DNA of 64,000 nt, taken from IMG/VR virus record IMGVR_UViG_3300039183_000005, positions 64,001-128,000 of that record; one strand, given 5' to 3'. The stretch's first letter is position 1, and each line of letters starts with the position of its first letter. Below are positions 14,429-34,642 of this stretch, one piece after another. The notes below the pieces were generated by a model, which was not told the DNA's origin, made no database searches, and worked only from the letters and a program-made list of their open reading frames with translations. The position numbers and the translations under genes were made by a program. This stretch comes from a virus.

Positions 14429-15326
14429 TTTTTGAAGTTCCTTCTTTCATCTTCCGCATTTCAGTAGCAGTAGCAAGTGCATCTTCGTACGTTAATGATT
14501 GTAGGTTGACATCACCTGTTTTCTCATTTAGCTTGTAGTCAATTCCAAGTTTATTTAATACTTCTGCAATATCAAAACCATGGCGTTCTGATATCAGCCT
14601 AATCATACTGATTTGACTTGTGTGAATTGGACCGCCCTTTTGAATATCAGATGCCGTTGCTACCGTTTTATTAACTTCCTCGGCAGAAACAGTTTTCTTT
14701 AGACACAGGGCATTTCGAAATACCCGCCCCTTTGCCCGAGTATCCGCCATGGCCACCAAATATGTCGCATAATCTTCTAAACAATTTTCGCTATGTGCAT
14801 CGGCCAATGCTTCAAATCTTTTTTCTCTTCCTTCTGGTGTTAGAAATACGCACCACGCTTTTGCACATGCGCGAAATCTATTTTCTTCGGTTGGAACAGC
14901 ATCGAGATTACATCCTTCCTCTATTATTTCTCCCACCAATTTCCCAGCAACACGCCTAAGTCCTTCTACCCGTGGATTTTGACCGTCCATCTCGTCATCT
15001 AAAAATTTTCCGAGAACATATTGTGTCCATCCAGGATCATTTGGCGTTGGCGGATCAATCTCTTCTGGATTATTGTCGCTATAATGGTCGTTCTCCAAAT
15101 TTAATTCTACTGCCACACCAACATCATCATCTTCTTTTGCTTCAGTAAGCACCTCCAATCCCAGTTCACCCTGTTTATGCGCTTGAAGTTTTTCTAATAA
15201 TGCCGGTCTTTTGAGACTCTTGCCTTGTGCGTCTAGCAGTTGTTCCTCAGTATATCCAGCGCTAAGAAGTGCTTCTTTAAGTTCTAATTTACCCATCCTT
15301 GTCGGTGGTTTCAATTCTGTCTGCAT
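14421..15326 (-). CDS. Rad52/ERF-superfamily single-strand annealing protein (putative)
   Basis: VEGLRRVA...ALADA...LVAMADTRAKGRVFRNAL motif typical of phage SSAPs. Confidence 0.55.
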   Translation of the reverse strand: MQTELKPPTRMGKLELKEALLSAGYTEEQLLDAQGKSLKRPALLEKLQAHKQGELGLEVLTEAKEDDDVGVAVELNLENDHYSDNNPEEIDPPTPNDPGWTQYVLGKFLDDEMDGQNPRVEGLRRVAGKLVGEIIEEGCNLDAVPTEENRFRACAKAWCVFLTPEGREKRFEALADAHSENCLEDYATYLVAMADTRAKGRVFRNALCLKKTVSAEEVNKTVATASDIQKGGPIHTSQISMIRLISERHGFDIAEVLNKLGIDYKLNEKTGDVNLQSLTYEDALATATEMRKMKEGTSKSD

Positions 15327-15906
15327 TTTTCATCTCCGTTAATACGAATTTCGTAAGTTTTTCTGCGTTACAATCTGATATAACATCATCACATATTTTG
15401 ATTTTAAATTCATTTTCAATTAATTCTTTGTGTGATTCATGTCTAGCAATGATTCTAACTCTCTGGTCGCAAAAAGCAGAAAGTAAATCACTTGATTCGA
15501 TGTGCGGTTTATCAATAAATTCAGGATCAAAAGCATAATGATAAACTAAAGATGCATTACTTGCCAAAGCTTCAATTGTGGTACCAATACTAGTGGTTAT
15601 CAGCGGATAATGATGCCACCTTATCAATTCAGACATACCAAAAATTGGACAAAGAGGTGGTAAACACGGTGGAATAAGATGTTGTGTAAAAATACATATA
15701 TCCAAACCAGCATAAGTGCGACACAATAAATTTATACTGTTAAGTCCCAAATATGTTAAATGTGATACGGCTAAGTGATTAAACACAAAGCCTACGACTG
15801 CTCTATCATCATTCAATTTTAAACCAAATTTTGCCATTTCTTTCGATGCTTGTTTCTTGCGATTAACGGCTTCTTTGTGTTTTGTGTTTTTTTGTTTTTT
15901 AGCCAC
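15289..15906 (-). CDS. Hypothetical protein (glycosylation cluster)
   Basis: 205 aa ORF overlapping its neighbours in the operon. Confidence 0.5.
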   Translation of the reverse strand: MAKKQKNTKHKEAVNRKKQASKEMAKFGLKLNDDRAVVGFVFNHLAVSHLTYLGLNSINLLCRTYAGLDICIFTQHLIPPCLPPLCPIFGMSELIRWHHYPLITTSIGTTIEALASNASLVYHYAFDPEFIDKPHIESSDLLSAFCDQRVRIIARHESHKELIENEFKIKICDDVISDCNAEKLTKFVLTEMKNADRIETTDKDG

Positions 15907-16669
15907 CTTGGTTGCCCCTACGTTGAGATGTAATTTGTTTTGCCATCATTTCGCATTGAGCAATAGACTGTGATGTGGCTTGGTCTACTTCTGTTACTAT
16001 ATTATGATGTAATGGTGCCGGAATGTGATAAATTAATCCGATTTCAGATATTCTGAGTAGCAATTCATAATCATATCGGAATTGCATTTGTTCATTAAAA
16101 CCACTTTTAAGTTTTGGAAATATTTGCGGTCGCACAAAAAAATTCATATCATATGGAAAATTGGTTAACAATCTTTGCATATCAAATGAACATCTGAAAA
16201 CTCTTTCTTCCCTTCCATCTGGATAGTGATTATCACAATCACTAACAACACAAGCGATAGCCGGTTGCTGGCTACAAACATAAATAGCCTGAGATATTTT
16301 GTCCGGTGTATACCAACTTGTTGGGTCCATAAAACCAAATAGTGTTATACCTTGCCACTTCATTTGTAGAGCAATATTTAATGTATGACCAATTGTGCTA
16401 AGTTGTTTCCTAAAAATTCTTATTGGTACTCCATCTAATTCGCCATCAAATTGTGGTGGTAAACCAGTTTTGTCGTCAATTGTGATTGGTTTGGCATCTA
16501 GCAGTTTACACAATACGTCGTATGTATTATCTGTGCTATCGTTGTCGCCCACAATAATTTGGTCGGCTGGACGGATACTTTTCGTTACCGATCTAATTGC
16601 TCTTTCTATCGTCGTTGCATTATTATGAGTAGCTATGATTATACAAACCTTTTCTTTATCTTTTATCAT
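15899..16669 (-). CDS. Glycosyltransferase family 2 (GT-A)
   Basis: IIIATHNNATTIERAIRSV, IIVGDNDSTDNT, DYELLLRI. Start at MIKDK (ATGA overlap). Confidence 0.85.
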   Translation of the reverse strand: MIKDKEKVCIIIATHNNATTIERAIRSVTKSIRPADQIIVGDNDSTDNTYDVLCKLLDAKPITIDDKTGLPPQFDGELDGVPIRIFRKQLSTIGHTLNIALQMKWQGITLFGFMDPTSWYTPDKISQAIYVCSQQPAIACVVSDCDNHYPDGREERVFRCSFDMQRLLTNFPYDMNFFVRPQIFPKLKSGFNEQMQFRYDYELLLRISEIGLIYHIPAPLHHNIVTEVDQATSQSIAQCEMMAKQITSQRRGNQGG

Positions 16670-17430
16670 ACCAGCCATGACTCCGCAAACAACCAGGAAA
16701 GACCCATACCAGTTTCTTCTTCTTCTATCCATAGTCTTTGTGTAAAAGATTCTTTTATTGGAGATTTCATCAATTCTTTGTATGGCATGGTAATGAATAA
16801 TCCATAATTAAGTTCTTGTGGTATAGTAGCTGTTGAACCGATCGCAAACGGAAAAGTCCAGTGAATAACACGACTAGAAACATGTTGAACCTTCCTGGCC
16901 AGTGTATGAAGATTAAATAATGTATTTCCAGCAGAAATTGCCATAAAAAATGGAGACTTAACCTGTTTGGAAACTCTTCGCAAAGTATCTCCACGTTGAT
17001 CAATAGTCTCGTGTTCACTACTGCTATCCACTACTGTTTGGATCGAATGCTTTTTGGCTTGTAAATATTGAAGTGCTAAATTTTTTCTTTCACCAAAACC
17101 AGTAGTATCCATAATAATAACTTTTTTGGCATATGGACGATACCAATTTGGACCCAATGTTTTCTCTAAGTCTCCTGCGGTGTTATGAGCTTCATCAAAA
17201 AATACCAATAAATCAAATCTCAACGCCATTTCGTCGATTACTTTCTCGTGTAATTGAGACATATCGGCAGTATTCTGTTTTTTAGCCCACTTGCGACTTC
17301 TGCACATTCGACAATAACCAGGAGCGAATACACGACCATTCTTAGAAACGCATAATTGTTTTATTGCACAGCCTTTTCCTGTATCGTCACTAACGAAAAA
17401 ACAGCAACCTTCACAACCAGTTGTTATCAT
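16666..17430 (-). CDS. Hypothetical protein with N-terminal Cys cluster
   Basis: CEGCCF...C...C...CRMCR; operon-coupled. Confidence 0.5.
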   Translation of the reverse strand: MITTGCEGCCFFVSDDTGKGCAIKQLCVSKNGRVFAPGYCRMCRSRKWAKKQNTADMSQLHEKVIDEMALRFDLLVFFDEAHNTAGDLEKTLGPNWYRPYAKKVIIMDTTGFGERKNLALQYLQAKKHSIQTVVDSSSEHETIDQRGDTLRRVSKQVKSPFFMAISAGNTLFNLHTLARKVQHVSSRVIHWTFPFAIGSTATIPQELNYGLFITMPYKELMKSPIKESFTQRLWIEEEETGMGLSWLFAESWLV

Positions 17431-17897
17431 TTTATTGCCTCTACATAAATTGCCACACCTTCGTAACGTTTAAGAGTTATCGTTAATCCGATTTCTTGTA
17501 ATAAATCCACTAATGTCATTGCGTCAATAACGGATATCCTAGAATCAACGCCCTCTTGTGTTCCGAAAATCATTTGTGAATATTCTGATAAATTGAATTG
17601 TCCTTGAGAAAAGGCTTTGGCTATAGCGTAACAATCCGGCACTAGTATTTTAAGTATACCACCTGCGACTAATTTCTGTGACCAATTTGTTAGGGTTCGT
17701 CTAATCGCTTTTATGGGCAAATATTCAAGACAATCTATAGCTAAAATTTCGTTAACAGTTTCATACTCAGTTAACCAATCTAGCGTCTGTATATCTCCTT
17801 GTCGATATATTTCCGGTGGTACCTGACCAGGAGGCAAACGGTCGATATTTATATATCCTGATCTAATGTCGTTGCCGCAGCCCAAGTTTAACTTCAT
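17427..17897 (-). CDS. Class I SAM-dependent methyltransferase (Methyltransf_11-like)
   Basis: KLNLGCG...GYINID...LVAGGILKILVPD. Confidence 0.8.
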   Translation of the reverse strand: MKLNLGCGNDIRSGYINIDRLPPGQVPPEIYRQGDIQTLDWLTEYETVNEILAIDCLEYLPIKAIRRTLTNWSQKLVAGGILKILVPDCYAIAKAFSQGQFNLSEYSQMIFGTQEGVDSRISVIDAMTLVDLLQEIGLTITLKRYEGVAIYVEAIK

Positions 17898-17907
17898 TAT
17901 TTATCTC

Positions 17908-18927
17908 CTATACCCAACGACCTGCTGGACATTTTGCCACTTTCCAAAATACCCTGTTCCACTCATCAAGAAACTTTTGTTGACCGAAATTTTTCAATAT
18001 TGTTTTCCTACCGGCAGCACCAATTTCGCGAGCCATATCTTGATCTGCTATTAATTCTTGAAGTCTTTCTTTCATGGTTATTGGATCATTGGTTATAAAA
18101 CCATTAATACCATCCTCGATAAATTCTGGCATTGCAGTAGTTGCTGTCGTAACAATAGGACATCCCACAGACATAGCTTCTAGTAAGCTGAATGGAGTTG
18201 TCGACCATAAAGTTGTATTCAGAAAAACCGAAGCATGACGATAAAGTTCCCTTAGATGATCAACGTTATCGGCATTTTTTGAAAATCCAGGACTATCTCC
18301 CCATGGATTTGTTGCCAAGCCATTTGTCACTTCCTGATATAGGTCAAATCCGCAAATTCTGTTTCTTTGTGGGTAATTCCACACAGCAGTCATGACTTTA
18401 CCATCGCCACCAATCCATCCATTCCAGTAGTCAGTTTGCATACCGTGCTTTATAACCGTAATATTTGGATCATTTAAATCACGGAACCATGCTCCAACAC
18501 TGAAATCGGCCATGAAAATGTCATGATCGCACGGTAAACTTCCTATTCGTTTTATGGTTTCATCATCCCAATCTGGCCACGGTAAAGTATGTTGAGCACA
18601 TAATAGTGGACAATTAAGTTGCTGTGATAATTGAACCATTATTGGATAATGATCAATTGAATTCTGAGAAAGTACCAAATCAAAGGCGATATCAATTTTT
18701 AGTTGATCGCGGATATCTTGACCTTGCAAGACAAAGAAATTAGGTGGTAATTTTCGTTCGCTAGAATTCCATCGATGGAATTTGGGATGTTGTAAAACAT
18801 AAAAATTATGGCCTGTTTCGGCTAATGTTGCACTGTACCCCTCGTGATTGTTGGCATATAGAATATTTAGGGGACGTTTGGGGTCGCGATTAATACTTCT
18901 CAAAGCTGTGGAAAGCGGTGCGGTCAT
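17908..18927 (-). CDS. Glycosyltransferase family 4 (GT-B)
   Basis: VFLNTT...PFSLLEAMSVGCPIVTT...IEDGINGF. Start MTAPL by TAATG overlap. Confidence 0.9.
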   Translation of the reverse strand: MTAPLSTALRSINRDPKRPLNILYANNHEGYSATLAETGHNFYVLQHPKFHRWNSSERKLPPNFFVLQGQDIRDQLKIDIAFDLVLSQNSIDHYPIMVQLSQQLNCPLLCAQHTLPWPDWDDETIKRIGSLPCDHDIFMADFSVGAWFRDLNDPNITVIKHGMQTDYWNGWIGGDGKVMTAVWNYPQRNRICGFDLYQEVTNGLATNPWGDSPGFSKNADNVDHLRELYRHASVFLNTTLWSTTPFSLLEAMSVGCPIVTTATTAMPEFIEDGINGFITNDPITMKERLQELIADQDMAREIGAAGRKTILKNFGQQKFLDEWNRVFWKVAKCPAGRWV

Positions 18928-19112
18928 TATTCGTTCTCCCTTGGTCGTCCATGACATATAGCACGATCTGCATTGCATTGAGCACAAACATCACGACCAG
19001 CTTTTGTTTCTGAATAAATTAATGGACCAGCTATTTCTGGTGGAAGTGTACATGTTTCGGGCACATATCCTTGTTGTATCATCAATTTTTTACCTAATTT
19101 TCCCCTAAACAT
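18927..19112 (-). CDS. Small Cys-rich hypothetical protein
   Basis: 61 aa, C...CxxC...C; coupled to both neighbours. Confidence 0.5.
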   Translation of the reverse strand: MFRGKLGKKLMIQQGYVPETCTLPPEIAGPLIYSETKAGRDVCAQCNADRAICHGRPRENE

Positions 19113-19357
19113 TATGATGTTCCTGTAATTTCTTTTAATTCTATATCATTTAAAGCCAATTGTAAATCAATTACCATCGCCATTAAAGATACAATCTCTT
19201 TATCTTTATCTGAATTAATACCACCATGAATCAGTCTTTTGGCTTGATTAGTTTTGACGCCATTAATATGCCAATAATCTCTAAGTGTTTGCAAAGCTTC
19301 ATCTTGAAGTCTAGTCATTCTCACTTTTTTCTCTAATTCTGTCATCATACTCTCCAC
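19112..19357 (-). CDS. Hypothetical protein
   Basis: 81 aa ORF in operon. Confidence 0.45.
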   Translation of the reverse strand: MESMMTELEKKVRMTRLQDEALQTLRDYWHINGVKTNQAKRLIHGGINSDKDKEIVSLMAMVIDLQLALNDIELKEITGTS

Positions 19358-19360
19358 AAA

Positions 19361-20536
19361 TTATATCAAGTATTTTTTGGCTATTTGTCCAACCTTGTCA
19401 TAGCTAAATTCTGCTACACGTTTTTTAGCAGCTTCTCCCTTAATATGCAATTTTCCGTCTTGCCATTCAGAATACGCCTGCTTCATACAATAAATTAAAT
19501 GTTCTATATCTGGATCGTACCAATATTCATCCCCAGTATATAAATCTGGGAACGAATCAGTCATGCCGAAACAGGGCGTCAATTGGCCCCTTATCAGCCA
19601 TCCACAGTTAACCTCTCCGGGATATTTGAACATATGTTTTTTGGGTTCCCAATATCTAAATGCTTGTGGATAAGTAAGTTCTGGAAAATAACCCCAGTTG
19701 CTCAAAATTACCGGATTTCCAAATCCAAGACTATCAAATGCCCCTAATCCAATTGCCTCACCATGGCTGGCCGAAACAAAAACATCACACGCACGATGAA
19801 GCTGATCAAGCTTTTGATCTGGTAGAAAATCCGTGATACACACTACTGGAGGATAATGTGGATGCTTAGCATATATATGTAGTGATTTTTTCACATCTTC
19901 AATTGTTGTTTTTAATATGTTAGTCACTTCGTCTGACGTTTTGCTTGGAATATGTACCTTTAGCACAAGGGCAACATCATCTCTAATACTGAATGCTGAA
20001 TAGAATGCTCTTAAAATTGCTACAACATTTTTCCTACGATTCATTTCTCCAATAGTATAAAATACGCACTTATTTTTGAGTTGTGGTATAGATAATGGTT
20101 CTGGAGCATTATCAAACCTGGCGGTGTCACATGAACATGGAAATATTTTAACGGGTACATTTACATCACTGTCCTTGACAGCTTGCGCATTTTGTATCGA
20201 TGGTACCCATATCTCATCCATAAGATTGCAACAATGGCTCCAGTTTGATCTTTTAAAATTTGTAGTTTCGCAACAAAACAAACCTATATTTCTTACTCCG
20301 AATTTATATTCAAACATATGTGGAAGCACATGCTGTATAACTACATCAACATTATCAGTATCTTTGTTTTCAAGATGTTCTACTTTCCGTGCTAATTCGT
20401 TATTTCTGGATTGAGATAATCTAACAGCACGCGATACAACATTAATATCACCCGCCTCAAGTGCCAACATATTATGTACGGCTTGATTAGAATATCCAGT
20501 ACCGTCGCGAAGTGGTGAAATATAGCATATTTTCAT
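19361..20536 (-). CDS. Glycosyltransferase family 4 (GT-B)
   Basis: DGTGYS, RRKNV, CDVFVSASHGEAIGLGAFDSLGFGNPVI. Confidence 0.85.
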   Translation of the reverse strand: MKICYISPLRDGTGYSNQAVHNMLALEAGDINVVSRAVRLSQSRNNELARKVEHLENKDTDNVDVVIQHVLPHMFEYKFGVRNIGLFCCETTNFKRSNWSHCCNLMDEIWVPSIQNAQAVKDSDVNVPVKIFPCSCDTARFDNAPEPLSIPQLKNKCVFYTIGEMNRRKNVVAILRAFYSAFSIRDDVALVLKVHIPSKTSDEVTNILKTTIEDVKKSLHIYAKHPHYPPVVCITDFLPDQKLDQLHRACDVFVSASHGEAIGLGAFDSLGFGNPVILSNWGYFPELTYPQAFRYWEPKKHMFKYPGEVNCGWLIRGQLTPCFGMTDSFPDLYTGDEYWYDPDIEHLIYCMKQAYSEWQDGKLHIKGEAAKKRVAEFSYDKVGQIAKKYLI

Positions 20537-23431
20537 TTAAATCACCGTCACATTTACTTGGTCTAGGACTTCACGCTTTAGTGATGCGAGTCGTTTTTCT
20601 TCCATTATATTCGCTTGGTGAACCATCTCCATAAAATGTTCAACAAATGCTTTTCGATCAAATGGTACACGACGATCACCAACAGTTTTCGATCCGCTAT
20701 TAAGTGATTTTAACCATTCACCGGCAAAATGCGTTTGTAACATATCGGGTCGATTCCAAACTTTACCAATAACCCAGTTTACAAATTCGCTATTGTTCAT
20801 ATTGTTATTTGGCGGAACTAAATTCGGACGATGAATACGAGGTGTCGGACATAACCAAGTAGTTTTCTGATCTTTAATGGGTGTTTCACGTATTACTTGA
20901 CCCCAAATTGCTGCTGTTCTTTCCCACCCACGACGACGCATTGGTTGGTCTTGTCCGTATGTCGGCACTAATTCTTCAGCGTATGCTCTTGTTCGTTTAG
21001 ATTTTTCCCCCCTAACAGTTTCATTTTGTTTAAGAAATTTATCTAATTTATTAGCAAAATCAATATTGCTAGGGAGAGCACGTTTTTGTTCTGTTTCTAT
21101 GATTGCCTCCCAGAAAAAACGTTCTACATCAATTGGGATACTTGTGGGACATTGAAAATAATCTTCCATAGCCGAATATTTTGGTGCAGCGACAGGAACA
21201 CCACAAGCCATTGCTTCCCAAGCTGGCATACCTGCTCCTTCGCAATTGTGCTGTAATCCTTCAAGTGTTACGTAATGATGATCATCCTCTACGTCTATAT
21301 TAACAACTTCACCACTAAAATCACTTTTTTCGCATGATTCAATTTTTACAAAAACAAATCCATCTTTATACAGGGTTTCGTGTGATTTCCGTTGTCCATC
21401 TATTCTTATTTCAAAACGATACATTGGTAATCTATTATCTCGATACGTTATAGAACAATTATAGTACCAACCAATTTTTTCTAATATTGGACCCAATAAT
21501 TTAGCAATATGCAAAGATGTTGTACTATATGTGTTGGTCCATGGTCGCTTTTTATTTTTTTGGGAACCATCTCCAGCTATCAATCCCCTTATAAGTGCTT
21601 CTTGTAATCCAGTGGGCCACAAATGGCATCCATACGGTAATTGCTTTGTATTATCCTTGTGATATAGCAGTGGTCTAAGCTGTTTCGTAAAGTCGACACT
21701 ATTAATATCAACATCCTTAGCATTTCTACCATGTTTAGTACAATCCCTAATACATCTCCGCTTTCCCATTTTATTTGCAATTTTTTGTATTTTTTCTAAA
21801 TTGATATTATCACTACCATGTAGAGTAATACGATTGTTGCCATTGCTAATATTAGCCTTGCCGTCAGCCGCAAATAATCCCAAATAGTACGCCATATCTT
21901 CATCTAAAAATGGTAGATCATAATTTGGTATAATTTCTTCTGTTGGTATGCGATTGACTAATAAATCACCTGGCTGCAATTCATCTGTTCTTTTGTATAT
22001 AAATGTGAGTTCAGGACAAGTAAATTCAGTACCGACCTGCACAGATGGAATATTTTCGAAACCAAACTCATTGGCTATTGGAACAACGATTTGTTGCTCA
22101 ATGCGGTCGGAGATACGATTGTGAAAATTTTGCATTTCTGCACTAACCATATTTTTGTTTTGATGATAATGTTCTCTGTTAACAATACTTTCTATTCCTT
22201 TGGATAGTCCAGTTCTATCTACAACCAGCCATGGATGATTATCCGTTGCCGTAATTGACCACGGTCTTCCCTTAATTTTTACATCGAAACATTTGTCGGA
22301 TGGATTTCTCATAGTCTTATAAACACGATGTAATTTACCATCCTTGCCGACAACCATATTGCCCACTTGAATATCGCCAATCGCTTCCCATCCATCCGAA
22401 GTCATAATGGGTGTGTCAGGATGCAAACAGATAGAATATTGAACGTATAGATCAAACGTTTTCATAATATCTGCTAACACATTACGTGGACATGAATGAT
22501 TTGCATTCGGTGGATGAGCAGCCAATTTTCCACATTTACGACAAACCATCATTTCACCATTGAAAAATGATGGATAGGCAGTTTGACAATTGCTACACAA
22601 ATAAGTCATAATGACCTTATTGCCAATTTTGAAATCGCGAATAGCTTTTCCTATGTCGTATCCGACATCTGGATAGCTAGTGTGAAGATAAAGGAATGTT
22701 CGTTTTGCTAATTCTAAGTGCCCCTTGGTTTTGGATTGATGGAGCCACATCGAAAATGCTTCTATTAAATCATAATACAGCTTGCGCTTTTGGTTTCGCA
22801 TGACCGTACCGACAATTAAAGAATTTGGATCAATTCCCAATCTGGCTTTATGATCCCTTTTATTTTCTGGCGGTTTAAACATTTCAAGATCAACACCAGG
22901 AGATGCTATCGTAACAAGATTTGTTCCTCGTCTGCCAGTTCTCTTTAGTAAATCCATACCATATTCAGAATATGTGAGAACACGATCGCATCGTTTATAT
23001 GTATCTAACCACAATTCTCTTTCGGGTTCTCCATCAATTGTCGGCATCCAAATAAATTTAAAATTATTGCGCAATGGCGAACGTTCAATAAATTCATCCA
23101 TCCACCAATCTCGGATCGAACAAACAATATCAGGCTTGAAATCCAAACATACATCATCAAATTTTGCTTCACCAAACTGATTTGTTGGGCTAGACATATA
23201 TTGCTGCATAGCCGCTTGATTGCTTCGAGCAGGTGCTACTGGATAAAATTTCCACGGAACTTGTTGGCAACGTGGATCATCATCGTGCGCGTAAGACCCC
23301 ATCTCAGCGCATAAAAATTCTCCAGTCGCATGTAATCGGCTAATTACTTCATTTAAATACGTGCTGAAACCAGTAGCAAGAAAACTCGCCTCACCGGTGA
23401 ATAAAACTCTACGCTTGCGATTAGACTCCAT
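20537..23431 (-). CDS. Glycosyltransferase family 4 with Zn-ribbon insert, interrupted by an intein
   Basis: TGFS, VMRNQKRK, CSNC/CRKC; spliced motif DLYVQYSI|CEGAGMPAWEAMACGVPV. Confidence 0.9.
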   Translation of the reverse strand: MESNRKRRVLFTGEASFLATGFSTYLNEVISRLHATGEFLCAEMGSYAHDDDPRCQQVPWKFYPVAPARSNQAAMQQYMSSPTNQFGEAKFDDVCLDFKPDIVCSIRDWWMDEFIERSPLRNNFKFIWMPTIDGEPERELWLDTYKRCDRVLTYSEYGMDLLKRTGRRGTNLVTIASPGVDLEMFKPPENKRDHKARLGIDPNSLIVGTVMRNQKRKLYYDLIEAFSMWLHQSKTKGHLELAKRTFLYLHTSYPDVGYDIGKAIRDFKIGNKVIMTYLCSNCQTAYPSFFNGEMMVCRKCGKLAAHPPNANHSCPRNVLADIMKTFDLYVQYSICLHPDTPIMTSDGWEAIGDIQVGNMVVGKDGKLHRVYKTMRNPSDKCFDVKIKGRPWSITATDNHPWLVVDRTGLSKGIESIVNREHYHQNKNMVSAEMQNFHNRISDRIEQQIVVPIANEFGFENIPSVQVGTEFTCPELTFIYKRTDELQPGDLLVNRIPTEEIIPNYDLPFLDEDMAYYLGLFAADGKANISNGNNRITLHGSDNINLEKIQKIANKMGKRRCIRDCTKHGRNAKDVDINSVDFTKQLRPLLYHKDNTKQLPYGCHLWPTGLQEALIRGLIAGDGSQKNKKRPWTNTYSTTSLHIAKLLGPILEKIGWYYNCSITYRDNRLPMYRFEIRIDGQRKSHETLYKDGFVFVKIESCEKSDFSGEVVNIDVEDDHHYVTLEGLQHNCEGAGMPAWEAMACGVPVAAPKYSAMEDYFQCPTSIPIDVERFFWEAIIETEQKRALPSNIDFANKLDKFLKQNETVRGEKSKRTRAYAEELVPTYGQDQPMRRRGWERTAAIWGQVIRETPIKDQKTTWLCPTPRIHRPNLVPPNNNMNNSEFVNWVIGKVWNRPDMLQTHFAGEWLKSLNSGSKTVGDRRVPFDRKAFVEHFMEMVHQANIMEEKRLASLKREVLDQVNVTVI
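21245..22429 (-). mobile_element. Intein (395 aa) with LAGLIDADG homing endonuclease
   Basis: Block A CLHPDTPI, block B TDNHPW, LAGLIDADG motifs YYLGLFAADG and LIRGLIAGDGS, block F/G VVNIDVEDDHHY...QHN followed by extein Cys. Confidence 0.95.
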
Positions 23432-27987: not shown

Positions 27988-28563
27988 TTATCTTAATACT
28001 GATGGTAATAACATGTGTCGATAGTCTCCAGCATAAATATGTAGATTGCTAATGCCTTCGGCCTTTAGTCGTTCTCGCAATTCATCTTCTTGATGTTTTG
28101 CTGTAGGAGATTTTCTAACATCGAAATCTATTAACACAGCTTTTACCTTATTGTATTCTCCAGAATCGAGTAGATTCGTGACAATAGAACATTCACTTCC
28201 TTCGCAATTCAATTTCAAAAATACTTCATCTTCTTTTGATATATTATTTCTAAACCACTCTGAAGCTTCAACAAAATAACACAAGTCATCTTTCTTCTGT
28301 GGATTACAGGTTGTTTGGTAATCATCCCAAATCGTTCCACCTTGTGAACCAGAGTTATGCAGTATCATATCGCACGTTTTAGAGAACAGCCCAAAGCCGC
28401 AAACTGTTACTTTCGGATTATTGTCAAATTTTCGGTGCAATATTTTTAGACATACAGGAGATGGTTCAAAAGTAAATATATGATCTATTTTAAATCGTGG
28501 TTGCAACAATAATTCCACTGTTTGCCCTTCGTGCCCTCCGACATCAAGGAATATTCGACTCAT
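27988..28563 (-). CDS. FkbM family methyltransferase
   Basis: FLDVGGHEG, FEPSP, LKLNCEGSE. SD GGAGG before MSRIF. Confidence 0.85.
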   Translation of the reverse strand: MSRIFLDVGGHEGQTVELLLQPRFKIDHIFTFEPSPVCLKILHRKFDNNPKVTVCGFGLFSKTCDMILHNSGSQGGTIWDDYQTTCNPQKKDDLCYFVEASEWFRNNISKEDEVFLKLNCEGSECSIVTNLLDSGEYNKVKAVLIDFDVRKSPTAKHQEDELRERLKAEGISNLHIYAGDYRHMLLPSVLR

Positions 28564-29407
28564 GCCATTTCCTCCAATCCGTATAAACAAAACGAGCTAA
28601 AAAAACATCGTCATGTATATGAAATGCAAATTTTAATTTGGGCAATAAGCCCGTGACTTTAAGTTGCTTAAAAGCAAATTCATGATTTGACGGCACACCC
28701 TGCCTAAGAAAAGTTTCTATGTTTTTATATAAGTTACCGAATTTATCCATAATTTCAGAACCACCAAAAAACCAATAATCGGCCAGTGCTTGATAATGTG
28801 GGTTATGTGGGTATCCGATATGGGTATGATGAAGTGTCGGATCATTTTTCTTATTCCATCCGTGGAAAAACCAATCTTCGTGTCTAATGCCTTGTCCGTT
28901 TGGCATCTTCATTACACACCAATTTGATGCATAAAAATTATTTGGATCAAATTGATCGAAATGCACGTCTGTAAGCCAAGCTACATCAAATCGTCCGATC
29001 ATAACCATATCATATTTGAATCCATGCTGTTGTTCATAATTTCGCTTAAGCTTCATGCACTGATAAATACTATACCATCTAGCAATCGTAATCTGCGTTT
29101 TGGAGGTAACGCCATCGGGATAATCCTTATCGACCATACCTCCTTTAATGTTAAATTTTGGATCATGTTCAAACATAGCGTCTTTTGGATTATATGCCTC
29201 TATTAGCGATTGTTTTACTTCGATACTTGGCGTGTGCATAAATACGTCTATATCGTTATGGGCGAACAGATGCTTTTTGTAGTGTTCAAAACCCCTTTCC
29301 CACTCAACGGGCGTTCTCTTTCCTGTCTTGCCATTCCACATTTGGCCACCCACAACCTTTTTGCCGGGGTGTGAAGCCATACCGTTTAAACATAGTGCTA
29401 TTTTCAA
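28544..29407 (-). CDS. Putative glycosyltransferase-like protein
   Basis: KIALCLNG, DVFMHT, RWYS, YDMVMIGRFD, DYWFFG pattern common in viral glycan clusters. Confidence 0.55.
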   Translation of the reverse strand: MKIALCLNGMASHPGKKVVGGQMWNGKTGKRTPVEWERGFEHYKKHLFAHNDIDVFMHTPSIEVKQSLIEAYNPKDAMFEHDPKFNIKGGMVDKDYPDGVTSKTQITIARWYSIYQCMKLKRNYEQQHGFKYDMVMIGRFDVAWLTDVHFDQFDPNNFYASNWCVMKMPNGQGIRHEDWFFHGWNKKNDPTLHHTHIGYPHNPHYQALADYWFFGGSEIMDKFGNLYKNIETFLRQGVPSNHEFAFKQLKVTGLLPKLKFAFHIHDDVFLARFVYTDWRKWHESNIP

Positions 29408-30120
29408 AACAACCTCCTTGCTGTTCCTATTCCATAATCTGGGAATTTTTCATTAATCATTTTGTCATTCACTAATTGTTTGTTGAACAAAGTTTCATCA
29501 ATTGCATCAAATACTGCTTTCGGACCTATGTGAATATTTGTATCACGCATAATAACAGTACCGAATGGTGATAAAAATTCCGTGAAACACCAATCATTGA
29601 TAGTCATTTCTATTGAATGATCACCATCAATCATAAGCAAATCTATTGTTGACATTCCAAGTTTTAACATATATTCCCGTATTCTATGTCTGAATTTGGA
29701 ATCAATAGTTATGGTGTATATGTTTTGGGCTGGATTGTTTATAGCAGAATTATCATTTATGTCGACACCAAGATACACGCAATTACAATGTTTTTCTTCT
29801 AATATGGCTCTGGTTGTTGACAATAATGGTTCTTGATATACATTTATTCCAATTTCCAATATATTTTTAGTTGATGGTAGCACTAAACTTCTTATTAGAT
29901 CGGTATGAACTTTTCTTACAGATGGTCCGTTGTGAACTAGAGGTATATTTGGTTCTATATTCGATTCAATGCACATTGGTAATCCAAAACCCTCCCCAAC
30001 ACGTGTAAACATTCTTTGCTCTTTATCGGAATACTCTGGTTCTATTGTTGGACAATATTTTAGACCATGAATTATAGATGGTTTTCTTTTCCAGTTTCGC
30101 ATCATATCTTTTTCTGACAT
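29404..30120 (-). CDS. Class I SAM-dependent methyltransferase (Methyltransf_24-like)
   Basis: ILEIG, GVD, IDLLMIDGDHS, GTVIMRD. Confidence 0.8.
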   Translation of the reverse strand: MSEKDMMRNWKRKPSIIHGLKYCPTIEPEYSDKEQRMFTRVGEGFGLPMCIESNIEPNIPLVHNGPSVRKVHTDLIRSLVLPSTKNILEIGINVYQEPLLSTTRAILEEKHCNCVYLGVDINDNSAINNPAQNIYTITIDSKFRHRIREYMLKLGMSTIDLLMIDGDHSIEMTINDWCFTEFLSPFGTVIMRDTNIHIGPKAVFDAIDETLFNKQLVNDKMINEKFPDYGIGTARRLF

Positions 30121-30122
30121 TT

Positions 30123-30716
30123 TTACTCCAATACTTTAAATATCTTACGTTCTTCTCCGGATGTAGTCATATCTACAAAAGAAACTACTTCACACTTTCT
30201 ATTGAATTTAGATACCCATTCGTTAAATGCCTTTTCTTCGTGATCATTAAATTCTGGATCATGTTTATAGAACCATTCATCAAAAACAATAATAGTTCCA
30301 TTTACAATGTAATCATTTAAAGTCCACAGTACTTCTTTCGCAGAACTGTAAATGTCTGAGTCAATATGTAATAATGCAATCGGCTGTGCAGTTTTCAAAT
30401 ATTCAGGTAATGTATCGGAAAACCATCCAACATAGAATTTTACACCGTCTATTTGTGGTACCTCGCCATCTGTAGAAAAATATCCAGGTGGCACAACTTC
30501 CTTTCCGTTTTTGTCAATCCATGGTTCTGGCAGACCAGCGAAAGAATCGAATCCAAACACCAGAAACGAATTATCTAGCGTCTGCCTTATGGTGCGAATA
30601 GTATCGCCCCTACAAACACCGAATTCTAAAACGTGTTTATATCGATCGTTTAATAGTGTGAGTCCATATTGCAAGCTAGAATATTTCACGACAAGACCTT
30701 TCTTTATAGATATCAA
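30123..30716 (-). CDS. TylF/MycF family sugar O-methyltransferase
   Basis: LEFGV, GFDSFAGLPE, GWFSDTL, ALLHIDSDIYSS, IVFDE. Start may be GTG 30689. Confidence 0.85.
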   Translation of the reverse strand: MISIKKGLVVKYSSLQYGLTLLNDRYKHVLEFGVCRGDTIRTIRQTLDNSFLVFGFDSFAGLPEPWIDKNGKEVVPPGYFSTDGEVPQIDGVKFYVGWFSDTLPEYLKTAQPIALLHIDSDIYSSAKEVLWTLNDYIVNGTIIVFDEWFYKHDPEFNDHEEKAFNEWVSKFNRKCEVVSFVDMTTSGEERKIFKVLE

Positions 30717-31344
30717 ATACTTTACTAAAATTAGCTAAAAATTCTTGATCTTCAGTTGAAACATCAAACGGTTTATTATTGGGCGGATGCCAGCCAACTG
30801 TTTTTGTTATTGTAAACGATGATTTTCTTTTCCATCCGAGTCGTTGTTGAACCTTATCAAGAATAACTTCTTGGTCTTTTCGCATTTGTTCATAGGTTAT
30901 GGTCAAATCTGCATACGACAACCAAAACATATTTGTTAACAACCATAATTCTGGTGGCGTTGCGAGTTGGTCCTGTATCCAACTTCTTCTTGGTTGAGAT
31001 ACTATTTTGTCATCAAAATAAATTTTGCAATCACCTGTTATTCTAGGCATTTTTCTATATGGCGTTCTTATAAAATCTGAAAAATTATTTAATTTAATAC
31101 CATTTCGTTCTCTCATTCTAAATACAGACATTAAAACGTGTTGGATATTGCGGCTACAATGAAATATATATGCTCGTCTAAATTTTTCTCGTATCTCGGT
31201 ATCAAATTTATGTCCACCAAACATATCCATATACTTTTTATATGGAGTGACGAAATTGTCAAATATAGTTTTTAGTACCCAATGTGTTCCGCTTCTTGGA
31301 TGTGTAACCAGTCGCAATCTGTCTTTCTTAAATTTTGGCTTCAT
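30676..31344 (-). CDS. Sulfotransferase domain protein
   Basis: PAPS-binding loop THPRSGTHW, RN...VLMS, ITYEQM. Confidence 0.75.
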   Translation of the reverse strand: MKPKFKKDRLRLVTHPRSGTHWVLKTIFDNFVTPYKKYMDMFGGHKFDTEIREKFRRAYIFHCSRNIQHVLMSVFRMRERNGIKLNNFSDFIRTPYRKMPRITGDCKIYFDDKIVSQPRRSWIQDQLATPPELWLLTNMFWLSYADLTITYEQMRKDQEVILDKVQQRLGWKRKSSFTITKTVGWHPPNNKPFDVSTEDQEFLANFSKVFDIYKERSCREIF

Positions 31345-32905
31345 TATTAACCTCTAAAAGATTCATTAACATCAATTTTCCCAAATGAAACAACATATCG
31401 GCATATGGCTGGTGATGCAGTACTGCTATATTTAAATAAATCAAAGCAGTTAAAACTTCTACTTTATGAAAATCATAGTGATTTTTTATGAGATATTTAC
31501 GAAACCAGGCTTCGCAATCAATAAGCGTTTGTCGCCTAAGTAGATCAAAATTAACTATATTACCATCTACATTAGCTTTATATAAACCATTGCGTATGAT
31601 ACCATGCGCAACAATTAGACCATGCCGCAATTTGGCCAGATCATAGTATATATCTCCGTAACCTATAAGACCACCAAAATTTTGTCGCCAGTCTAGCAGC
31701 TTAAAATCATTACCAGTATCTATTGTATTTTCAAAATGTAAATCACCGTGAAATCTTACTGGAATACCTTCCGATATCCATTTCCAGTTTACGCTATTGA
31801 GTAATTCTTTTATTGGTGGAACAACAACACTATTAATACATTGTGATGAATCTCTGCGACAAAATCGTTCAAAATATTCCCGTACTCGCCGAAATGTTTT
31901 GTCTTGATAAAATTTACGGTAGATTTCTCTTACTTCGACGGTAAGAAGTTGTCGATCTTCCCATAAACCTTCCAACCATTCTAAAAAGTCTTTAAATCTA
32001 GATAAAGTAATAGTGTCAGATAATACTTTACCATTTACTTTTCTATAACAATACATATTTTGTGTACTGTTTTCTATCTGTGGAATATATCCATTTAAAG
32101 ATAATTTAGCTCGCTGTACTCTTTGTGCTATAAATTTTTTATCAGTAGAAAATTTAATAACACGATTATTACAAAACCAAATATGTTCTTGTGTTTTTGG
32201 TAAGATATTTGGATCATCTTCTTTGCTAAATATTTTATTAGCACAATTCAACGCTTCAACAGTACCGGTGTCATACCACGTAAATTTTATTCCATGTACG
32301 GGTTGATTTTTTATCATTAACGCTAATGCAAATGATTCTCCCTGATTGATTGTTCCTTCTTCTAGTGCTTGGTCCATAGCAATCCAAAATGTTCTATAAT
32401 CATTGATACCACAAACGCCAACATATGCTTTTGCTTCTGTGTGGTCCCCCTTTTCCCCTATGTTTTTAATTATGGTATTATCCCAAGAATCAACAACGAC
32501 TGAACGATAATCATTGCCAGCTCGAATATCTGCATAGCCTATCCAATCACAATCGGGCGGTGGAACATCTTCTGTCACAATAGCATCGTTGGTAAAAAAG
32601 ATAAATGGACATTGCAATATATCTTTATAATTACATAAATCCGCCGTAAGACCCTTTCTCTTAGCCCAAACAAAAGTAAAATTGCGATCAGGATAAGCTA
32701 ATGTGAGAAATTCTTTTACCAATTCCCCTTTGTGTCCTAAGTCGATAATGATTTCTATATCCTTAGGAAACTTTTCTATAATATATGAAATAATGGGGCG
32801 ATTGGCAACTGGAACCAATGTTTTGTTCACATGGTCACAATGATTACCAAGCCTAGAGCCTACACCGGCAGTTGGTATTAATACTTTATATTTATTTGCG
32901 TCCAT
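31328..32905 (-). CDS. Sugar nucleotidyltransferase fused to an APH/choline-kinase-like phosphotransferase
   Basis: IPTAGVGSRL...NKTLVPV, WYDTG; C-terminal FHGDLHFEN, LLDWR, GDIYYDLAKL. Confidence 0.85.
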   Translation of the reverse strand: MDANKYKVLIPTAGVGSRLGNHCDHVNKTLVPVANRPIISYIIEKFPKDIEIIIDLGHKGELVKEFLTLAYPDRNFTFVWAKRKGLTADLCNYKDILQCPFIFFTNDAIVTEDVPPPDCDWIGYADIRAGNDYRSVVVDSWDNTIIKNIGEKGDHTEAKAYVGVCGINDYRTFWIAMDQALEEGTINQGESFALALMIKNQPVHGIKFTWYDTGTVEALNCANKIFSKEDDPNILPKTQEHIWFCNNRVIKFSTDKKFIAQRVQRAKLSLNGYIPQIENSTQNMYCYRKVNGKVLSDTITLSRFKDFLEWLEGLWEDRQLLTVEVREIYRKFYQDKTFRRVREYFERFCRRDSSQCINSVVVPPIKELLNSVNWKWISEGIPVRFHGDLHFENTIDTGNDFKLLDWRQNFGGLIGYGDIYYDLAKLRHGLIVAHGIIRNGLYKANVDGNIVNFDLLRRQTLIDCEAWFRKYLIKNHYDFHKVEVLTALIYLNIAVLHHQPYADMLFHLGKLMLMNLLEVNNEAKI

Positions 32906-33239
32906 AATCATCTTTAACACGAACTACATCGTCCAATTCTGGAGTCGATGTCTCTAGATATATTACGTCAGTTATTCCTTCCATACGATGTGTTCTACCA
33001 GGAACAATAGTATGGCAATCTCCAGGATTTAAAACTATATCTTCCCAAGTTGAATCCGAACCTTCAAAATTTGTGGTGAATAATAATGTACCACTTATTA
33101 CCAAAATTGTTTCCCTTTTTTGTTCGTGATATTGTAAACTACAGCGATTTCCAGCTTTCATAAATAGTCGTTTTACAACGTACTTATCGTTAACTTCTAA
33201 AATTTCTTCATAACCCCATGGCTTTTCTATTCTTTTCAT
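32892..33239 (-). CDS. Cupin protein (mannose-6-phosphate isomerase type II C-terminal-like)
   Basis: EKPWGYE, SLQYHEQKRET, HRM, ETSTPELDDVVR. Confidence 0.85.
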   Translation of the reverse strand: MKRIEKPWGYEEILEVNDKYVVKRLFMKAGNRCSLQYHEQKRETILVISGTLLFTTNFEGSDSTWEDIVLNPGDCHTIVPGRTHRMEGITDVIYLETSTPELDDVVRVKDDYGRK

Positions 33240-33243
33240 ATTA

Positions 33244-34284
33244 TTATCCTAACGCAAATAAATAATGTTCAATTACCTTGCTTATCTCATTAACTATATT
33301 TTCCTTGATATTAATTTTTTTAGCCAATTTTTCAACTAACTCCTGATATGTTGACCCATTAAAATGGTAATGACCAGCAATAAGTGTAAATAACATCCAC
33401 TGCGGATTAGTCGAAAACCAGTCTACATTAAATCCGCGAACAACAGCAATGCGTGATTGATCAACCCATTTGCGCCATCGATCACCATTCATGACTTCTG
33501 AAACAAATTTCCGTGTGTCAATACCATAAATCAGAGCTTGCGACAATACATAGTTTGTTTGTACAACACCGAGCTGTGGCGCTATATTAACTGCATCAAC
33601 AACTCCCTTTCTCCAATTTATATCTTCTGTACTTAGGTAATCTGCATTATGTTCCTTTAATTTCACATTAAGGGTTTTTAATTCATAATGTATTATGCCA
33701 GTATGATACACTTTGAAGTTGCTAGTATTATGAATTTCTCGCACTAGGCTTCCAGTTTGCACGACATAAAAGAGAGGGTTAGCCACTTGCTGACACGTTT
33801 TAACGTCTGAAACAATTTTGTCCACATCTGTTTCTGTCACGCCGATATTTTCATCTGTACCAATTTCAAACATTACATCTGATTTAATTCCAATAGCAAA
33901 TTTCATCAATTCTTGGGTATGCCGTAATTTTTCTTCGTGCGATACTTTCATGTGGCATAAGTCAATATGAATCAAATCGAATCCATTTTCTAGGTCGTTT
34001 CGTATAGTTTCTCTTGTCGCATCTAAATTGTATTCTGGTTCCAATCCAAAACCTGGACCACAATGATCGCGACAGATCATAATTTTTGCTTTTCGATATT
34101 TTCTGCGCATTTTGGCTACATATTCAACATATTCTTTTGTGGTAAAAACATATCCATTTTTTGCATTGACTTGATTGCGAGAACAAATTAGCATTAATGG
34201 TTGCTTAAATTTATGAGAATACCTAAAAACAGCTTCAACAACTTCTTTACTCATCGGTCCACAGGCTAACTTAGATATTGACAT
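33244..34284 (-). CDS. GatZ/KbaZ-like (tagatose-6-phosphate epimerase/aldolase family) protein
   Basis: SRNQV...GY, RDHCGP, IHID, EIGTDE, KEHNADY, NIAPQLG. Confidence 0.75.
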   Translation of the reverse strand: MSISKLACGPMSKEVVEAVFRYSHKFKQPLMLICSRNQVNAKNGYVFTTKEYVEYVAKMRRKYRKAKIMICRDHCGPGFGLEPEYNLDATRETIRNDLENGFDLIHIDLCHMKVSHEEKLRHTQELMKFAIGIKSDVMFEIGTDENIGVTETDVDKIVSDVKTCQQVANPLFYVVQTGSLVREIHNTSNFKVYHTGIIHYELKTLNVKLKEHNADYLSTEDINWRKGVVDAVNIAPQLGVVQTNYVLSQALIYGIDTRKFVSEVMNGDRWRKWVDQSRIAVVRGFNVDWFSTNPQWMLFTLIAGHYHFNGSTYQELVEKLAKKINIKENIVNEISKVIEHYLFALG

Positions 34285-34642
34285 CGGTCATACCCTCATT
34301 TCGTTTCAAGTTAACACATGCCGCTGTTTTCCCTTTACGATCAAGTTTTACGTCATTAATTACCACACGTTGTCCCCGTGGCAGATTCATTATTAAATTA
34401 TGATAATGCAAATCTACCTCATTCAATTGTTGCTCTGTAATCAATCTAAGACTTTCTGGCCGACCAGTTGTTAAGATAATAGTATATCCCTTTCTAATCC
34501 ACTCACAGAATTTGTCCTTTACTCCTGGTAGTACCACTGGTTTTTGGGTCGCTATGGCTAGTTTACCAGGATGGAAAAAAATACAACCATCGATATCGCA
34601 AAAAATTGTTTTGACATGAATTGCATGGTCAATTCGTGACAT
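34271..34642 (-). CDS. HAD-superfamily phosphatase
   Basis: FCDIDG, TTGR, VVIND. Confidence 0.85.
   Translation of the reverse strand: MSRIDHAIHVKTIFCDIDGCIFFHPGKLAIATQKPVVLPGVKDKFCEWIRKGYTIILTTGRPESLRLITEQQLNEVDLHYHNLIMNLPRGQRVVINDVKLDRKGKTAACVNLKRNEGMTDVNI

Follow-up and report, generated by a model that had tools for sequence, protein, structure and literature searches.

Chlorovirus PBCV-1 encodes cytoplasmic glycosyltransferases (GTs) together with sugar O-methyltransferases and nucleotide-sugar enzymes including a GDP-mannose 4,6-dehydratase (GMD), and in bacteria the multi-site O-glycosylation of Ser residues in adhesins (by autotransporter heptosyltransferases, GtfA/GtfB and SdgA/SdgB) is carried out by soluble enzymes that act on repetitive, beta-rich surface proteins before export. 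Self-glycosylation of the tailed-phage virion is, to our knowledge, known only from small cassettes of actinobacteriophages; those of mycobacteriophages (Freeman et al. 2023, Cell Host Microbe) reportedly target the Ser/Thr-rich C-terminal tails of capsid and tube subunits. Here we describe the glycan genes of an uncultivated phage, centred on a window of 64,000 nucleotides (bases 64,001 to 128,000) of the 168,332-bp IMG/VR record IMGVR_UViG_3300039183_000005. Coordinates are those of the window unless given as genome positions.

The glycan genes of the window all lie on the minus strand, in block 1 (15289–23437) and block 2 (26402–34642), where a sequence-only reading of this DNA had placed them (with 23431 as the end of block 1). 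A third block lies outside the window, on the plus strand at genome positions 11355–16242, directly upstream of the gene for the large terminase TerL. From sequence comparison, the three blocks appear to form a glycan assembly system without export genes, which is a core trait of a widespread uncultivated phage lineage with genomes of ∼140–180 kb. Self-glycosylation of exposed virion proteins is the best single reading of this system, with a probability of roughly 0.45 in our estimate. It is based on the enrichment of Ser-Gly dipeptides in virion proteins, the terminase-side position of the third block, a sequence motif (GTGTATAAT) that this block shares with structural genes, and a comparable group of genes within the head module of a cyanophage, S-CBS4.

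Self-glycosylation by phages, the glycan machineries of giant viruses and glycans on phage DNA were already known in kind. The present system adds to them in scale and architecture: its eight GTs are spread over three blocks, sugar nucleotides are supplied by two branches, and the glycan would be O-methylated and possibly sulfated. Also new are the combination of a conserved core with a variable island seated between the dnaE halves, the inteins that interrupt GMD and the active site of a GT, and a candidate dipeptide sequon. If the virion is the target, some environmental phages would invest in a glycan coat at giant-virus scale (∼25 conserved genes with their own sugar-nucleotide supply and a strain-variable island), which would affect how they adsorb, how stable they are, how they avoid decoys and how they are recognized. 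Independently of the target, four features are concrete: the homing inteins, the split dnaE framing a swap-in island of glycan genes, the Ser-specific dipeptide bias as a candidate sequon, and a four-gene nucleoside diphosphate (NDP)-sugar module in common with bacterial polysaccharide loci.

Genome and lineage

The DNA comes from a sediment metagenome, and among sequencing runs it was found in the probable source sediment sample only, with no RNA run listed. The record is rated 100% complete, and its first 100 bases reappear close to its end. A plus-strand arm of packaging and virion genes stops near position 13,300 of the window, where a minus-strand arm of replication and nucleotide genes begins. 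Megablast of a 21.7-kb region against isolated phages gave no match, placing the phage in a lineage without a cultured member in that collection, and GT4i, the core GT-B enzyme of block 1, finds only matches of 22–24% identity in isolated phages. More than 120 strong homologues of GT4i are present on metagenomic contigs of 140–181 kb, many of them with inteins, and five related genomes (160–180 kb) have both blocks 1 and 2 in synteny.

Ser-Gly enrichment in virion proteins

In three large fibre proteins (2216, 1526 and 1164 aa), Gly follows Ser 131 times against 45 expected, an approximately three-fold excess, while GS, NG, DG and TG are not in excess. The Ser-Gly enrichment that the sequence-only reading had noticed in several virion proteins is thereby confirmed and is specific to Ser. 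The C-terminal part of the 2216-aa fibre is encoded at the start of the window (2–1672, plus strand); the fibre has YWTD/LDL-B repeats and contains 66 SG and 20 GS against 22.9 expected (P 2e-13). The 1164-aa protein (22 SG and 6 GS, 7.5 expected) and a 216-aa protein (9 SG, 3.9 expected) are encoded at 8308–12533 on the plus strand, at the end of the structural arm that faces block 1, and their orthologues retain the enrichment. All three proteins are candidate acceptors. A tape-measure-sized 1680-aa protein, TerL, and proteins of 800 and 598 aa served as internal controls and are not enriched, and neither is the structural region of phage T4 (60 SG and 50 GS, 51.5 expected).

In alignments of orthologues, Ser conservation is 0.64–0.68 in SG compared with 0.29–0.41 for other Ser. 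Both Ser codon families contribute, which places the selection at the protein level; a DNA motif as the cause was rejected on the use of both Ser codon boxes, and a generic beta-turn preference was rejected because Asn-Gly and Asp-Gly are not enriched. As a separate observation, the TCA codon is nearly avoided before Gly (6 of 152 SG serines and 100 of 389 other serines in five SG-rich proteins), which could be a codon-pair or DNA-motif effect.

The enrichment was also followed through related genomes, designated here by G numbers. It is present in the fibres of G001, G002, G005, G013, G014 and G015 (P 1e-7 to 1e-11), weaker in G004, G011, G012 and G016, and absent in G006, G007 and G010. The idea that it tracks a particular island cassette was rejected, since G013, G014 and G015 have other cassettes and strong enrichment. 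For the correlation between enrichment and the presence of the cluster, proposed earlier as a check, the enrichment is shared across the clade but missing in G006, which carries most of block 1.

Terminase-side block and late promoter candidates

The third block encodes a sigma-region-2 protein, a 308-aa protein of unknown function, a 374-aa GT (Glyco_trans_1_2) and a 714-aa GMD (genome 14098–16242, plus strand; Pfam E 4e-114). The GMD carries a LAGLIDADG intein of ∼345 aa inside the motif FNHE|SPRRG. The block stands beside TerL in all close relatives, whose GMD is intein-less. In G005, G011, G012, G014 and G015, the TerL match itself falls into two pieces ∼1.1–1.8 kb apart with a break at residues 207–229, which suggests an intein or other insertion in these relatives, while TerL of the genome described here is uninterrupted.

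The motif GTGTATAAT, with no −35 element, occurs 0–91 nt upstream of plus-strand genes of the structural arm, at genome positions 11177, 18861, 27072, 40249, 47299, 50811, 65632 (window 1632) and 75844 (window 11844). It precedes the third block and seven other structural-arm genes, and is a candidate late promoter. Block 1, for its part, adjoins the fibre/lysis end of the structural arm, and blocks 1 and 2 are on the replication strand. In cyanophage S-CBS4, distant homologues of GT4i are encoded between the portal and the protease, together with a second GT and a methyltransferase. The glycan coat on the particle that the sequence-only reading had proposed gains indirect support from the Ser-Gly pattern, its conservation and the terminase-side block.

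Several observations weigh against a virion target. None of the GTs belongs to a recognized protein O-glycosyltransferase family. The neighbours of blocks 1 and 2 on the replication strand are DnaE, SSB and other DNA-handling genes, and neither block has the structural-arm motif. The fold neighbours of GT4i (MshA, BshA, GlgM and SPS) work on small molecules, and are those reported for phage DNA arabinosyltransferases (PMC13326640). Thr replaces Ser at SG sites no more often than at other Ser, and of three genomes that carry block 1 (G006 most of it), G011 and G012 are only weakly enriched and G006 is not enriched at all. The two genomes without GT4i share only DnaE with the lineage and are poor controls, and the correlation between Ser-Gly and block 1 is consequently confounded by phylogeny. 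The Ser-Gly pattern could also be a fold-specific structural motif of YWTD-repeat fibres.

The conserved core: block 1 and GT4i

The enzyme closest to DnaE and SSB in block 1 is GT4i (20537–23437), a 966-aa protein with a 572-aa extein, matching the intein-less orthologues of 572–587 aa. The intein occupies residues 337–731 (21245–22429; Pfam LAGLIDADG_3, Intein_splicing and Hint), and alignment to an intein-less orthologue sets its boundaries at YSI|C...HN|CEG. Its Cys1, C-terminal His-Asn, +1 Cys and domains of the Hint and LAGLIDADG types place it in class 1, and intein-less orthologues lack precisely this segment. The insertion splits YSI|CEGxGMP, the donor-binding motif of GT4 enzymes (E-x7-E), and in other relatives the intein is found after residue 106 instead, or at both sites.

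The AlphaFold2 model of a GT4i orthologue (predicted local distance difference test score, pLDDT, 90) has a GT-B fold into which a zinc ribbon with four Cys is inserted, and ends in a helical domain. Two Rossmann domains and the E-x7-E motif assign GT4i to the retaining GT-B enzymes of GT4; E337 is invariant in the conserved CEGxGMP motif, and the adjoining C349 is nearly invariant. The best Foldseek matches are the chlorovirus NY2A GT (3oy2), MshA, GlgM, SPS and BshA. PimB' and the mycobacterial methylmannose-polysaccharide mannosyltransferase 7qsg were also matched, and giant-virus GT4 models are numerous among the further structural matches. A protein-binding insertion of the GtfA/Sdg type was considered and rejected, as it was not found in the model.

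These neighbours bear on a further possibility, in which the product is soluble or non-virion. It could be a methylated saccharide, oligomeric or polymeric, that stays in the cytoplasm, a small molecule bearing sugars, or non-structural proteins of the phage or host that are glycosylated during infection. The neighbours of GT4i take small acceptors (inositol phosphate, malate and sugar phosphates), one of them (7qsg) makes a cytoplasmic methylated polymer, and no acceptor-recognition domain was identified by Pfam or among the structure matches of GT4i and the GT-A protein of block 1. We nevertheless regard such a product as very unlikely, as it has no phage precedent and would leave unexplained both the Ser-Gly pattern and the block beside the packaging operon, and the hypervariable island described below suggests a product that is exposed to recognition.

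The remaining genes of block 1 encode four further GTs and two smaller proteins. The GT2 enzyme (15899–16732; Pfam Glycos_transf_2, E 1.8e-9) is kept in relatives. The 254-aa protein at 16666–17430 has a GT-A fold (AlphaFold2 pLDDT 85.6) and an N-terminal Cys-rich, zinc-ribbon-like domain with invariant Cys at positions 6, 9, 10, 21 and 40; its Foldseek matches are the WrtF fucosyltransferase, SunS, TarP and SpsA (prob 1.0, TM-score ∼0.5). GT4a (17908–18987; Glyco_trans_1_4, E 1.8e-15) and the GT4/GT20-like GT4b (19361–20536; Glycos_transf_1, E 3.7e-8) complete the set. Between the GT-A protein and GT4a, the 156-aa protein at 17427–17897 is a probable small class I S-adenosylmethionine-dependent methyltransferase from an N-terminal LNLGCG and a later LEYLP motif seen by eye; profile hidden Markov model and PDB profile searches gave no support, and the gene is kept even in the distant relative G006 (26% identity). 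The 205-aa protein at 15289–15906 has orthologues of 35–78% identity in all close relatives, and no Pfam, NCBIfam, PHROG or PDB-profile match.

A sigma-factor-like protein (NCBIfam SigB/F/G-type matches) and SSB (Pfam E 3.7e-22) are encoded between block 1 and DnaE (23421–24438, minus strand). An HNH endonuclease gene (13802–14428) and an 81-aa open reading frame (ORF; 19112–19357), beside and within block 1, are missing at the matching positions in relatives and appear to behave as mobile passengers, a reading based for the HNH gene on the copies that occupy other places in the islands of relatives. A second motif, TGAAACAA(A), is repeated upstream of minus-strand genes including that of SSB (window 24508), and a scan of the cluster for generic sigma-70 promoters and terminators gave no excess over shuffled controls.

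The variable island in dnaE

Block 2 is flanked by the two halves of DnaE, the C-terminal half at 24514–26361 (finger and HhH; DNA_pol3_finger, E 1e-48) and the N-terminal half at 34629–36974 (PHP and polymerase core; DNA_pol3_alpha, E 8e-63, and PHP, E 4e-38), both on the minus strand. The C-terminal half begins directly in the finger domain, leaving no room for a split intein. In the N-terminal half, the DNA_pol3_alpha match is in two pieces with an insertion of ∼108 aa between them.

A comparison of 79 loci collected with a DnaE profile gives a gradient. The distant G007 and G010 have an unsplit DnaE of ∼1100–1170 aa (27227–30742 in G007) and no GT4i. In G006 (28919–32592), DnaE is split into two adjacent ORFs separated by a 2-nt gap and no island; GT4i, GT4b, GT4a, the small methyltransferase and GT2 come next. 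In the close clade, dnaE is split and a variable island of 5–10 kb stands between the halves. The islands comprise the full cassette with or without the sulfotransferase and Methyltransf_24 genes, a reduced set of FkbM, GT32 and GT-A, and quite different sets, such as that of G012 with two Glyco_trans_1_2 proteins, a GT2, a sugar kinase of the PfkB type and three methyltransferases, of which one is a fusion with a radical-SAM domain. GT4i adjoins DnaE/SSB even at 33–40% DnaE identity. From this gradient and the differences in island content, block 1 and the terminase-side block are seen as an old conserved core, and block 2 as one allele of a hypervariable glycan island inside the split dnaE.

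Elsewhere in the replication arm and at the left genome end are encoded a BrxL-like Lon ATPase (E 1e-103), two ClpP homologues, an N6/N4 DNA methyltransferase and a tyrosine recombinase (55814–56698); the other genes of this set lie at 59611–61062 and 55171–55860 in the window and at 8510–9223 and 9895–10644 in the genome.

Transferases of block 2

In the order of transcription, block 2 encodes a HAD-IIIA phosphatase, a GatZ/KbaZ-like protein, a cupin, a nucleotidyltransferase-kinase, a sulfotransferase-like protein, TylF, Methyltransf_24, a DUF7796-like protein, FkbM, a GT32-like and a GT8-like protein, all on the minus strand. The GT32-like GT (27229–27975) has a DXD region and matches Caps_synth (E 7e-12) and Gly_transf_sug (E 7e-7). 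Adjacent to it in several island variants is the GT8-like gene (26402–27229), whose product is probably a GT-A enzyme related to GT8 and nucleotide-diphospho-sugar transferases; this is a lead from language-model neighbours only, with a DVD motif seen by eye. Counting it, the window encodes seven GTs, the upper number of the sequence-only reading.

That reading also listed four methyltransferases, of which FkbM (27988–28590; NCBIfam TIGR01444, 40.9 bits with a cut-off of 37.7) and the TylF-type sugar O-methyltransferase (30123–30716; E 2.3e-13) are firm. The other two are assigned by motif, namely the small protein of block 1 and the CmcI/TylF-type Methyltransf_24 protein (29404–30120), which has a DGDH motif and a Pfam match under the cut-off (E 0.002), and whose variable gene is present in just one relative (L005/L071). 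The sulfation suggested earlier also becomes conditional. The protein at 30676–31344 is a probable sulfotransferase dependent on 3'-phosphoadenosine 5'-phosphosulfate: its match to Sulfotransfer_1 (E 4e-4) scores 20.3 bits with a cut-off of 22, motifs similar to the 5'-PSB (PRSGTHW) and 3'-PB (RN..V..S) are seen by eye, and comparison with solved sulfotransferases in the PDB covers only the P-loop (E 0.2–0.7). The gene is found in about half of the full cassettes. The DUF7796-like protein (28544–29407; weak Pfam match, PHROG 13607 E 1.3e-10) travels with the sugar module, and PDB profile searches with it gave nothing.

The sugar-nucleotide module and its bacterial counterparts

The four genes of the NDP-sugar module, recognized in the sequence-only reading, are confirmed by Pfam, NCBIfam and family profiles. 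The small HAD-IIIA phosphatase (34271–34642; GmhB/AfhF-like) has an invariant DxD motif, and its family profile matches the Pnkp1 phosphatase domain (E 9e-6) and heptose-1,7-bisphosphate phosphatase GmhB (E 5e-4). The GatZ/KbaZ-like protein (33244–34284; E 3e-8; PDB 3txv and 2fiq) has a class II aldolase fold and is a candidate ketohexose-phosphate epimerase (4-epimerase) or aldolase. The 115-aa cupin (32892–33239) is similar to type II phosphomannose isomerases (MannoseP_isomer, E 2.3e-9; NCBIfam GMP_PMI C-terminal domain, E 5e-10). The 530-aa bifunctional fusion (31328–32920) comprises an N-terminal sugar-1-phosphate nucleotidyltransferase (RmlA/GalU/MurU-type NCBIfam matches at residues 12–219) and a C-terminal APH-like sugar kinase (match at 379–431), and has bacterial homologues of 45–48% identity.

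The HAD phosphatase, the kinase-nucleotidyltransferase fusion and the isomerase together would constitute a mutase-independent NDP-sugar route, for which we infer the order of steps and the sugar. This is the logic of the GDP-heptose pathway. A similar route has been described for UDP-arabinose in phages RB69, DLP3 and HY126 (PMC13326640). Since the cupin resembles type II phosphomannose isomerase and the genome encodes GMD, the sugar may be a hexose of the mannose type, able to feed a 6-deoxyhexose branch.

The four module genes occur in identical order (small hydrolase, GatZ-like, 115-aa cupin, nucleotidyltransferase-kinase) in surface-polysaccharide loci of Marinomonas colpomeniae (locus L200, 7906–11572) and a 253-kb metagenomic contig (locus L201, 5852–10569). 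The Marinomonas proteins are 46% (kinase-nucleotidyltransferase), 49% (cupin), 29% (GatZ-like) and 31% (DUF7796-like) identical to those of the phage. Between them, the two bacterial loci also encode ManC, ManB or GMD, Wzz, many methyltransferases, a DUF7796-like protein and a fused ABC exporter. Export and chain-length functions appear to be exactly what the phage copy of the module has shed.

Missing export functions and the host envelope

In the phage, no fused ABC exporter, Wzz, flippase, polymerase or priming transferase was found anywhere in the genome: profile searches for Bac_transf, ABC_membrane and ABC_tran were negative genome-wide, and a hydropathy scan (19-residue window, Kyte-Doolittle mean of at least 1.6) found no membrane segment in any cluster protein and no protein in the whole genome with more than three hydrophobic segments, hence none polytopic enough for a WecA/MraY-type enzyme. 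The absence of these functions and of membrane segments, which the sequence-only reading had noted for the window and proposed to pursue through the rest of the genome, is upheld. The cytoplasmic acceptor (protein or DNA) that it derived from this absence is a reasonable view, strengthened by the bacterial loci that pair the module with an exporter and Wzz.

An envelope target would require the host to supply the missing steps, with the phage enzymes working from the cytoplasmic side of the membrane on lipid-linked precursors that the host makes for O-antigen, capsule or teichoic acid, and a host flippase or ABC transporter exporting the altered polymer. The surface of the infected cell would thereby change, for instance to block superinfection or prevent progeny from sticking to debris. 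The counterparts of the sugar module, DUF7796-like protein, methyltransferases and GMD in bacterial loci of the ABC-transporter type agree with this, as do the GT2, GT4, GT32, FkbM and TylF families, which are typical of surface-polysaccharide loci. TarP, to which the GT-A protein is structurally similar, exemplifies soluble enzymes that lack membrane segments and still modify lipid-linked polymers, and the recombinase encoded at 55814–56698 is a further point in favour. We consider envelope remodelling rather unlikely, however, given the absence of a priming transferase, flippase, polymerase, Wzz or ABC exporter in a genome rated complete, and the status of the genes as a deep lineage core and intein targets, unlike sporadic host-conversion genes. 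The third block, moreover, sits in the packaging/head operon, and the Ser-Gly pattern would be left unexplained.

Nucleotide genes and the DNA alternative

The main alternative in the sequence-only reading was hypermodification of DNA, in which an oligosaccharide would be attached to a modified base, as in T4, RB69 and DLP3, and the island would provide variety in the DNA glycan in response to restriction and to defences that depend on modification. The module brings this alternative into view: an isomerase, a nucleotidyltransferase-kinase fusion and a GmhB-like HAD protein match the AfhE/AfhF route to UDP-arabinose, and the three GT-B enzymes of the GT4 type in arabinosylation systems have MshA, BshA and SPS as fold neighbours (PMC13326640). 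In Enterococcus phage 9183, the gene for a homologue of the fusion (21% identity) is surrounded by those of thymidylate synthase, dUTPase, kinases and DNA polymerase. The linkage of block 1 to DnaE and SSB extends through the lineage as a whole, the halves of dnaE enclose block 2, and zinc-ribbon-like inserts are found in both GT4i and the GT-A protein.

Enzymes for a suitable base are, on the other hand, missing. The genome has no ThyA family member, TET/JBP dioxygenase, C5 methylase, TGT/DpdA or PurZ; six-frame searches of the genome with PF00303, PF12851 and PF00145 gave no match at E up to 1. Homologues of ThyA are the source of 5-hydroxymethylcytosine, 5-hydroxymethyluracil and 5-hydroxycytosine. 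The lack of a hydroxymethylated-base synthase, noted earlier for the window, thus extends to the whole genome, where ThyX and a dCMP deaminase point to ordinary thymidine. No DNA glycan described in PMC13326640 calls for as many enzymes as eight GTs, four O-methyltransferases and a probable sulfotransferase, and a module of this design is not peculiar to DNA modification, because bacteria use the same module for surface polysaccharides. DNA as the target is in our view quite unlikely, weakened as it is by the missing base-hydroxylating enzymes; it is kept alive by the kinase-nucleotidyltransferase and HAD layout, which is the design of DNA arabinosylation, and by the linkage to DnaE and SSB.

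A Z-base (2-aminoadenine) genome was also considered and rejected, as no homologue of PurZ/adenylosuccinate synthetase is present in the genome. Two proteins encoded at 38637–39395 and 52278–52916, one whose N-terminal domain is a dATP/dGTP diphosphohydrolase of the MazZ type (E 5e-16) and one with an HD domain, recall Z-genome phages; a neighbouring 395-aa protein had no informative match.

Proposed pathway of virion glycosylation

Under virion self-glycosylation, we infer the order of steps, the sugar and the acceptor as follows. The GatZ-like enzyme would reshape a ketohexose phosphate, and the cupin would isomerize the product to an aldose-6-phosphate. The kinase domain would then phosphorylate C1 to give the 1,6-bisphosphate, from which the HAD-IIIA phosphatase would strip the 6-phosphate, and the nucleotidyltransferase domain would turn the resulting 1-phosphate into the NDP-sugar, with no need for a phosphomutase. 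The terminase-side GMD would supply a 6-deoxyhexose branch. From these donors, the eight soluble GTs of the three blocks would assemble an oligosaccharide in the cytoplasm, to be decorated by the O-methyltransferases and in some strains by the sulfotransferase. The likeliest acceptors would be Ser residues of Ser-Gly dipeptides in the large tail fibre and other exposed virion proteins. Block 1 and the terminase-side block would provide the conserved part of this machinery, and the island in the gap of dnaE the strain-variable part.

Taken in its entirety, the picture would be that of a globally distributed, uncultivated lineage of ∼170-kb phages that make their own methylated glycan, sulfated in some strains, and attach it by O-glycosylation to Ser-Gly sequons of their tail fibres. 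An ancient intein-colonized GT core would build the conserved part, and a hypervariable island in the split dnaE that resembles an O-antigen locus the strain-specific part. This would be a phage equivalent of serotype variation, fed by an uncharacterized mutase-independent NDP-hexose pathway in common with bacterial loci. That all of these parts hold together is doubtful.

Comparison with known systems

The bacterial loci of the ABC-transporter type share with the phage the order of the module and the nearby methyltransferases, DUF7796-like gene, ManC and GMD, but differ from it in having phosphomannomutase, Wzz and a fused ABC exporter, all missing from the phage. The DNA arabinosylation systems of RB69, DLP3 and HY126 (Afh) are similar in having an isomerase, a nucleotidyltransferase-kinase and a small HAD protein, several GT4-type GT-B enzymes that extend the glycan, and a location among replication and nucleotide genes (PMC13326640). 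They differ in that the phage described here has no ThyA-homologue 5-hydroxy-dCMP synthase or dedicated nucleotide kinases, has a cupin in place of the SIS isomerase, and has in addition a GatZ-like protein, methyltransferases and a probable sulfotransferase; BLAST against the RB69 enzyme found no similarity to the phage fusion.

The glycosylation of bacterial adhesins offers a functional analogy to the dispersed Ser-Gly sites of the fibres. GT4i, however, is without the DUF1975-type insertion, GtfA/Sdg are not among its listed Foldseek matches, and its NCBIfam similarity to SdgA is that of GT4 enzymes in general, so that GT4i does not belong with these adhesin-glycosylating enzymes. Among the chloroviruses and giant viruses, NY2A 3oy2 is the best structural match of GT4i. 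These viruses are eukaryotic and their major capsid protein bears N-linked glycans of an atypical kind, and with an identity of only 13% the resemblance is one of fold and logic.

Among phages, the 'moraphage' paper (PMC12619734), which cites the mycobacteriophage work, concerns another lineage. Cyanophage S-CBS4 comes close in its mini-cassette of a GT4 homologue, second GT and methyltransferase in the head module. The mycobacteriophages likewise use soluble phage GTs, often with a methyltransferase, to modify their own structural proteins in the cytoplasm with no export genes. Their cassettes consist of a few genes inside the structural operon, whereas the putative system described here comprises eight GTs in three blocks, its own nucleotide-sugar synthesis, a possible sulfotransferase, an island in dnaE and a putative Ser-Gly sequon dispersed through the fibres.

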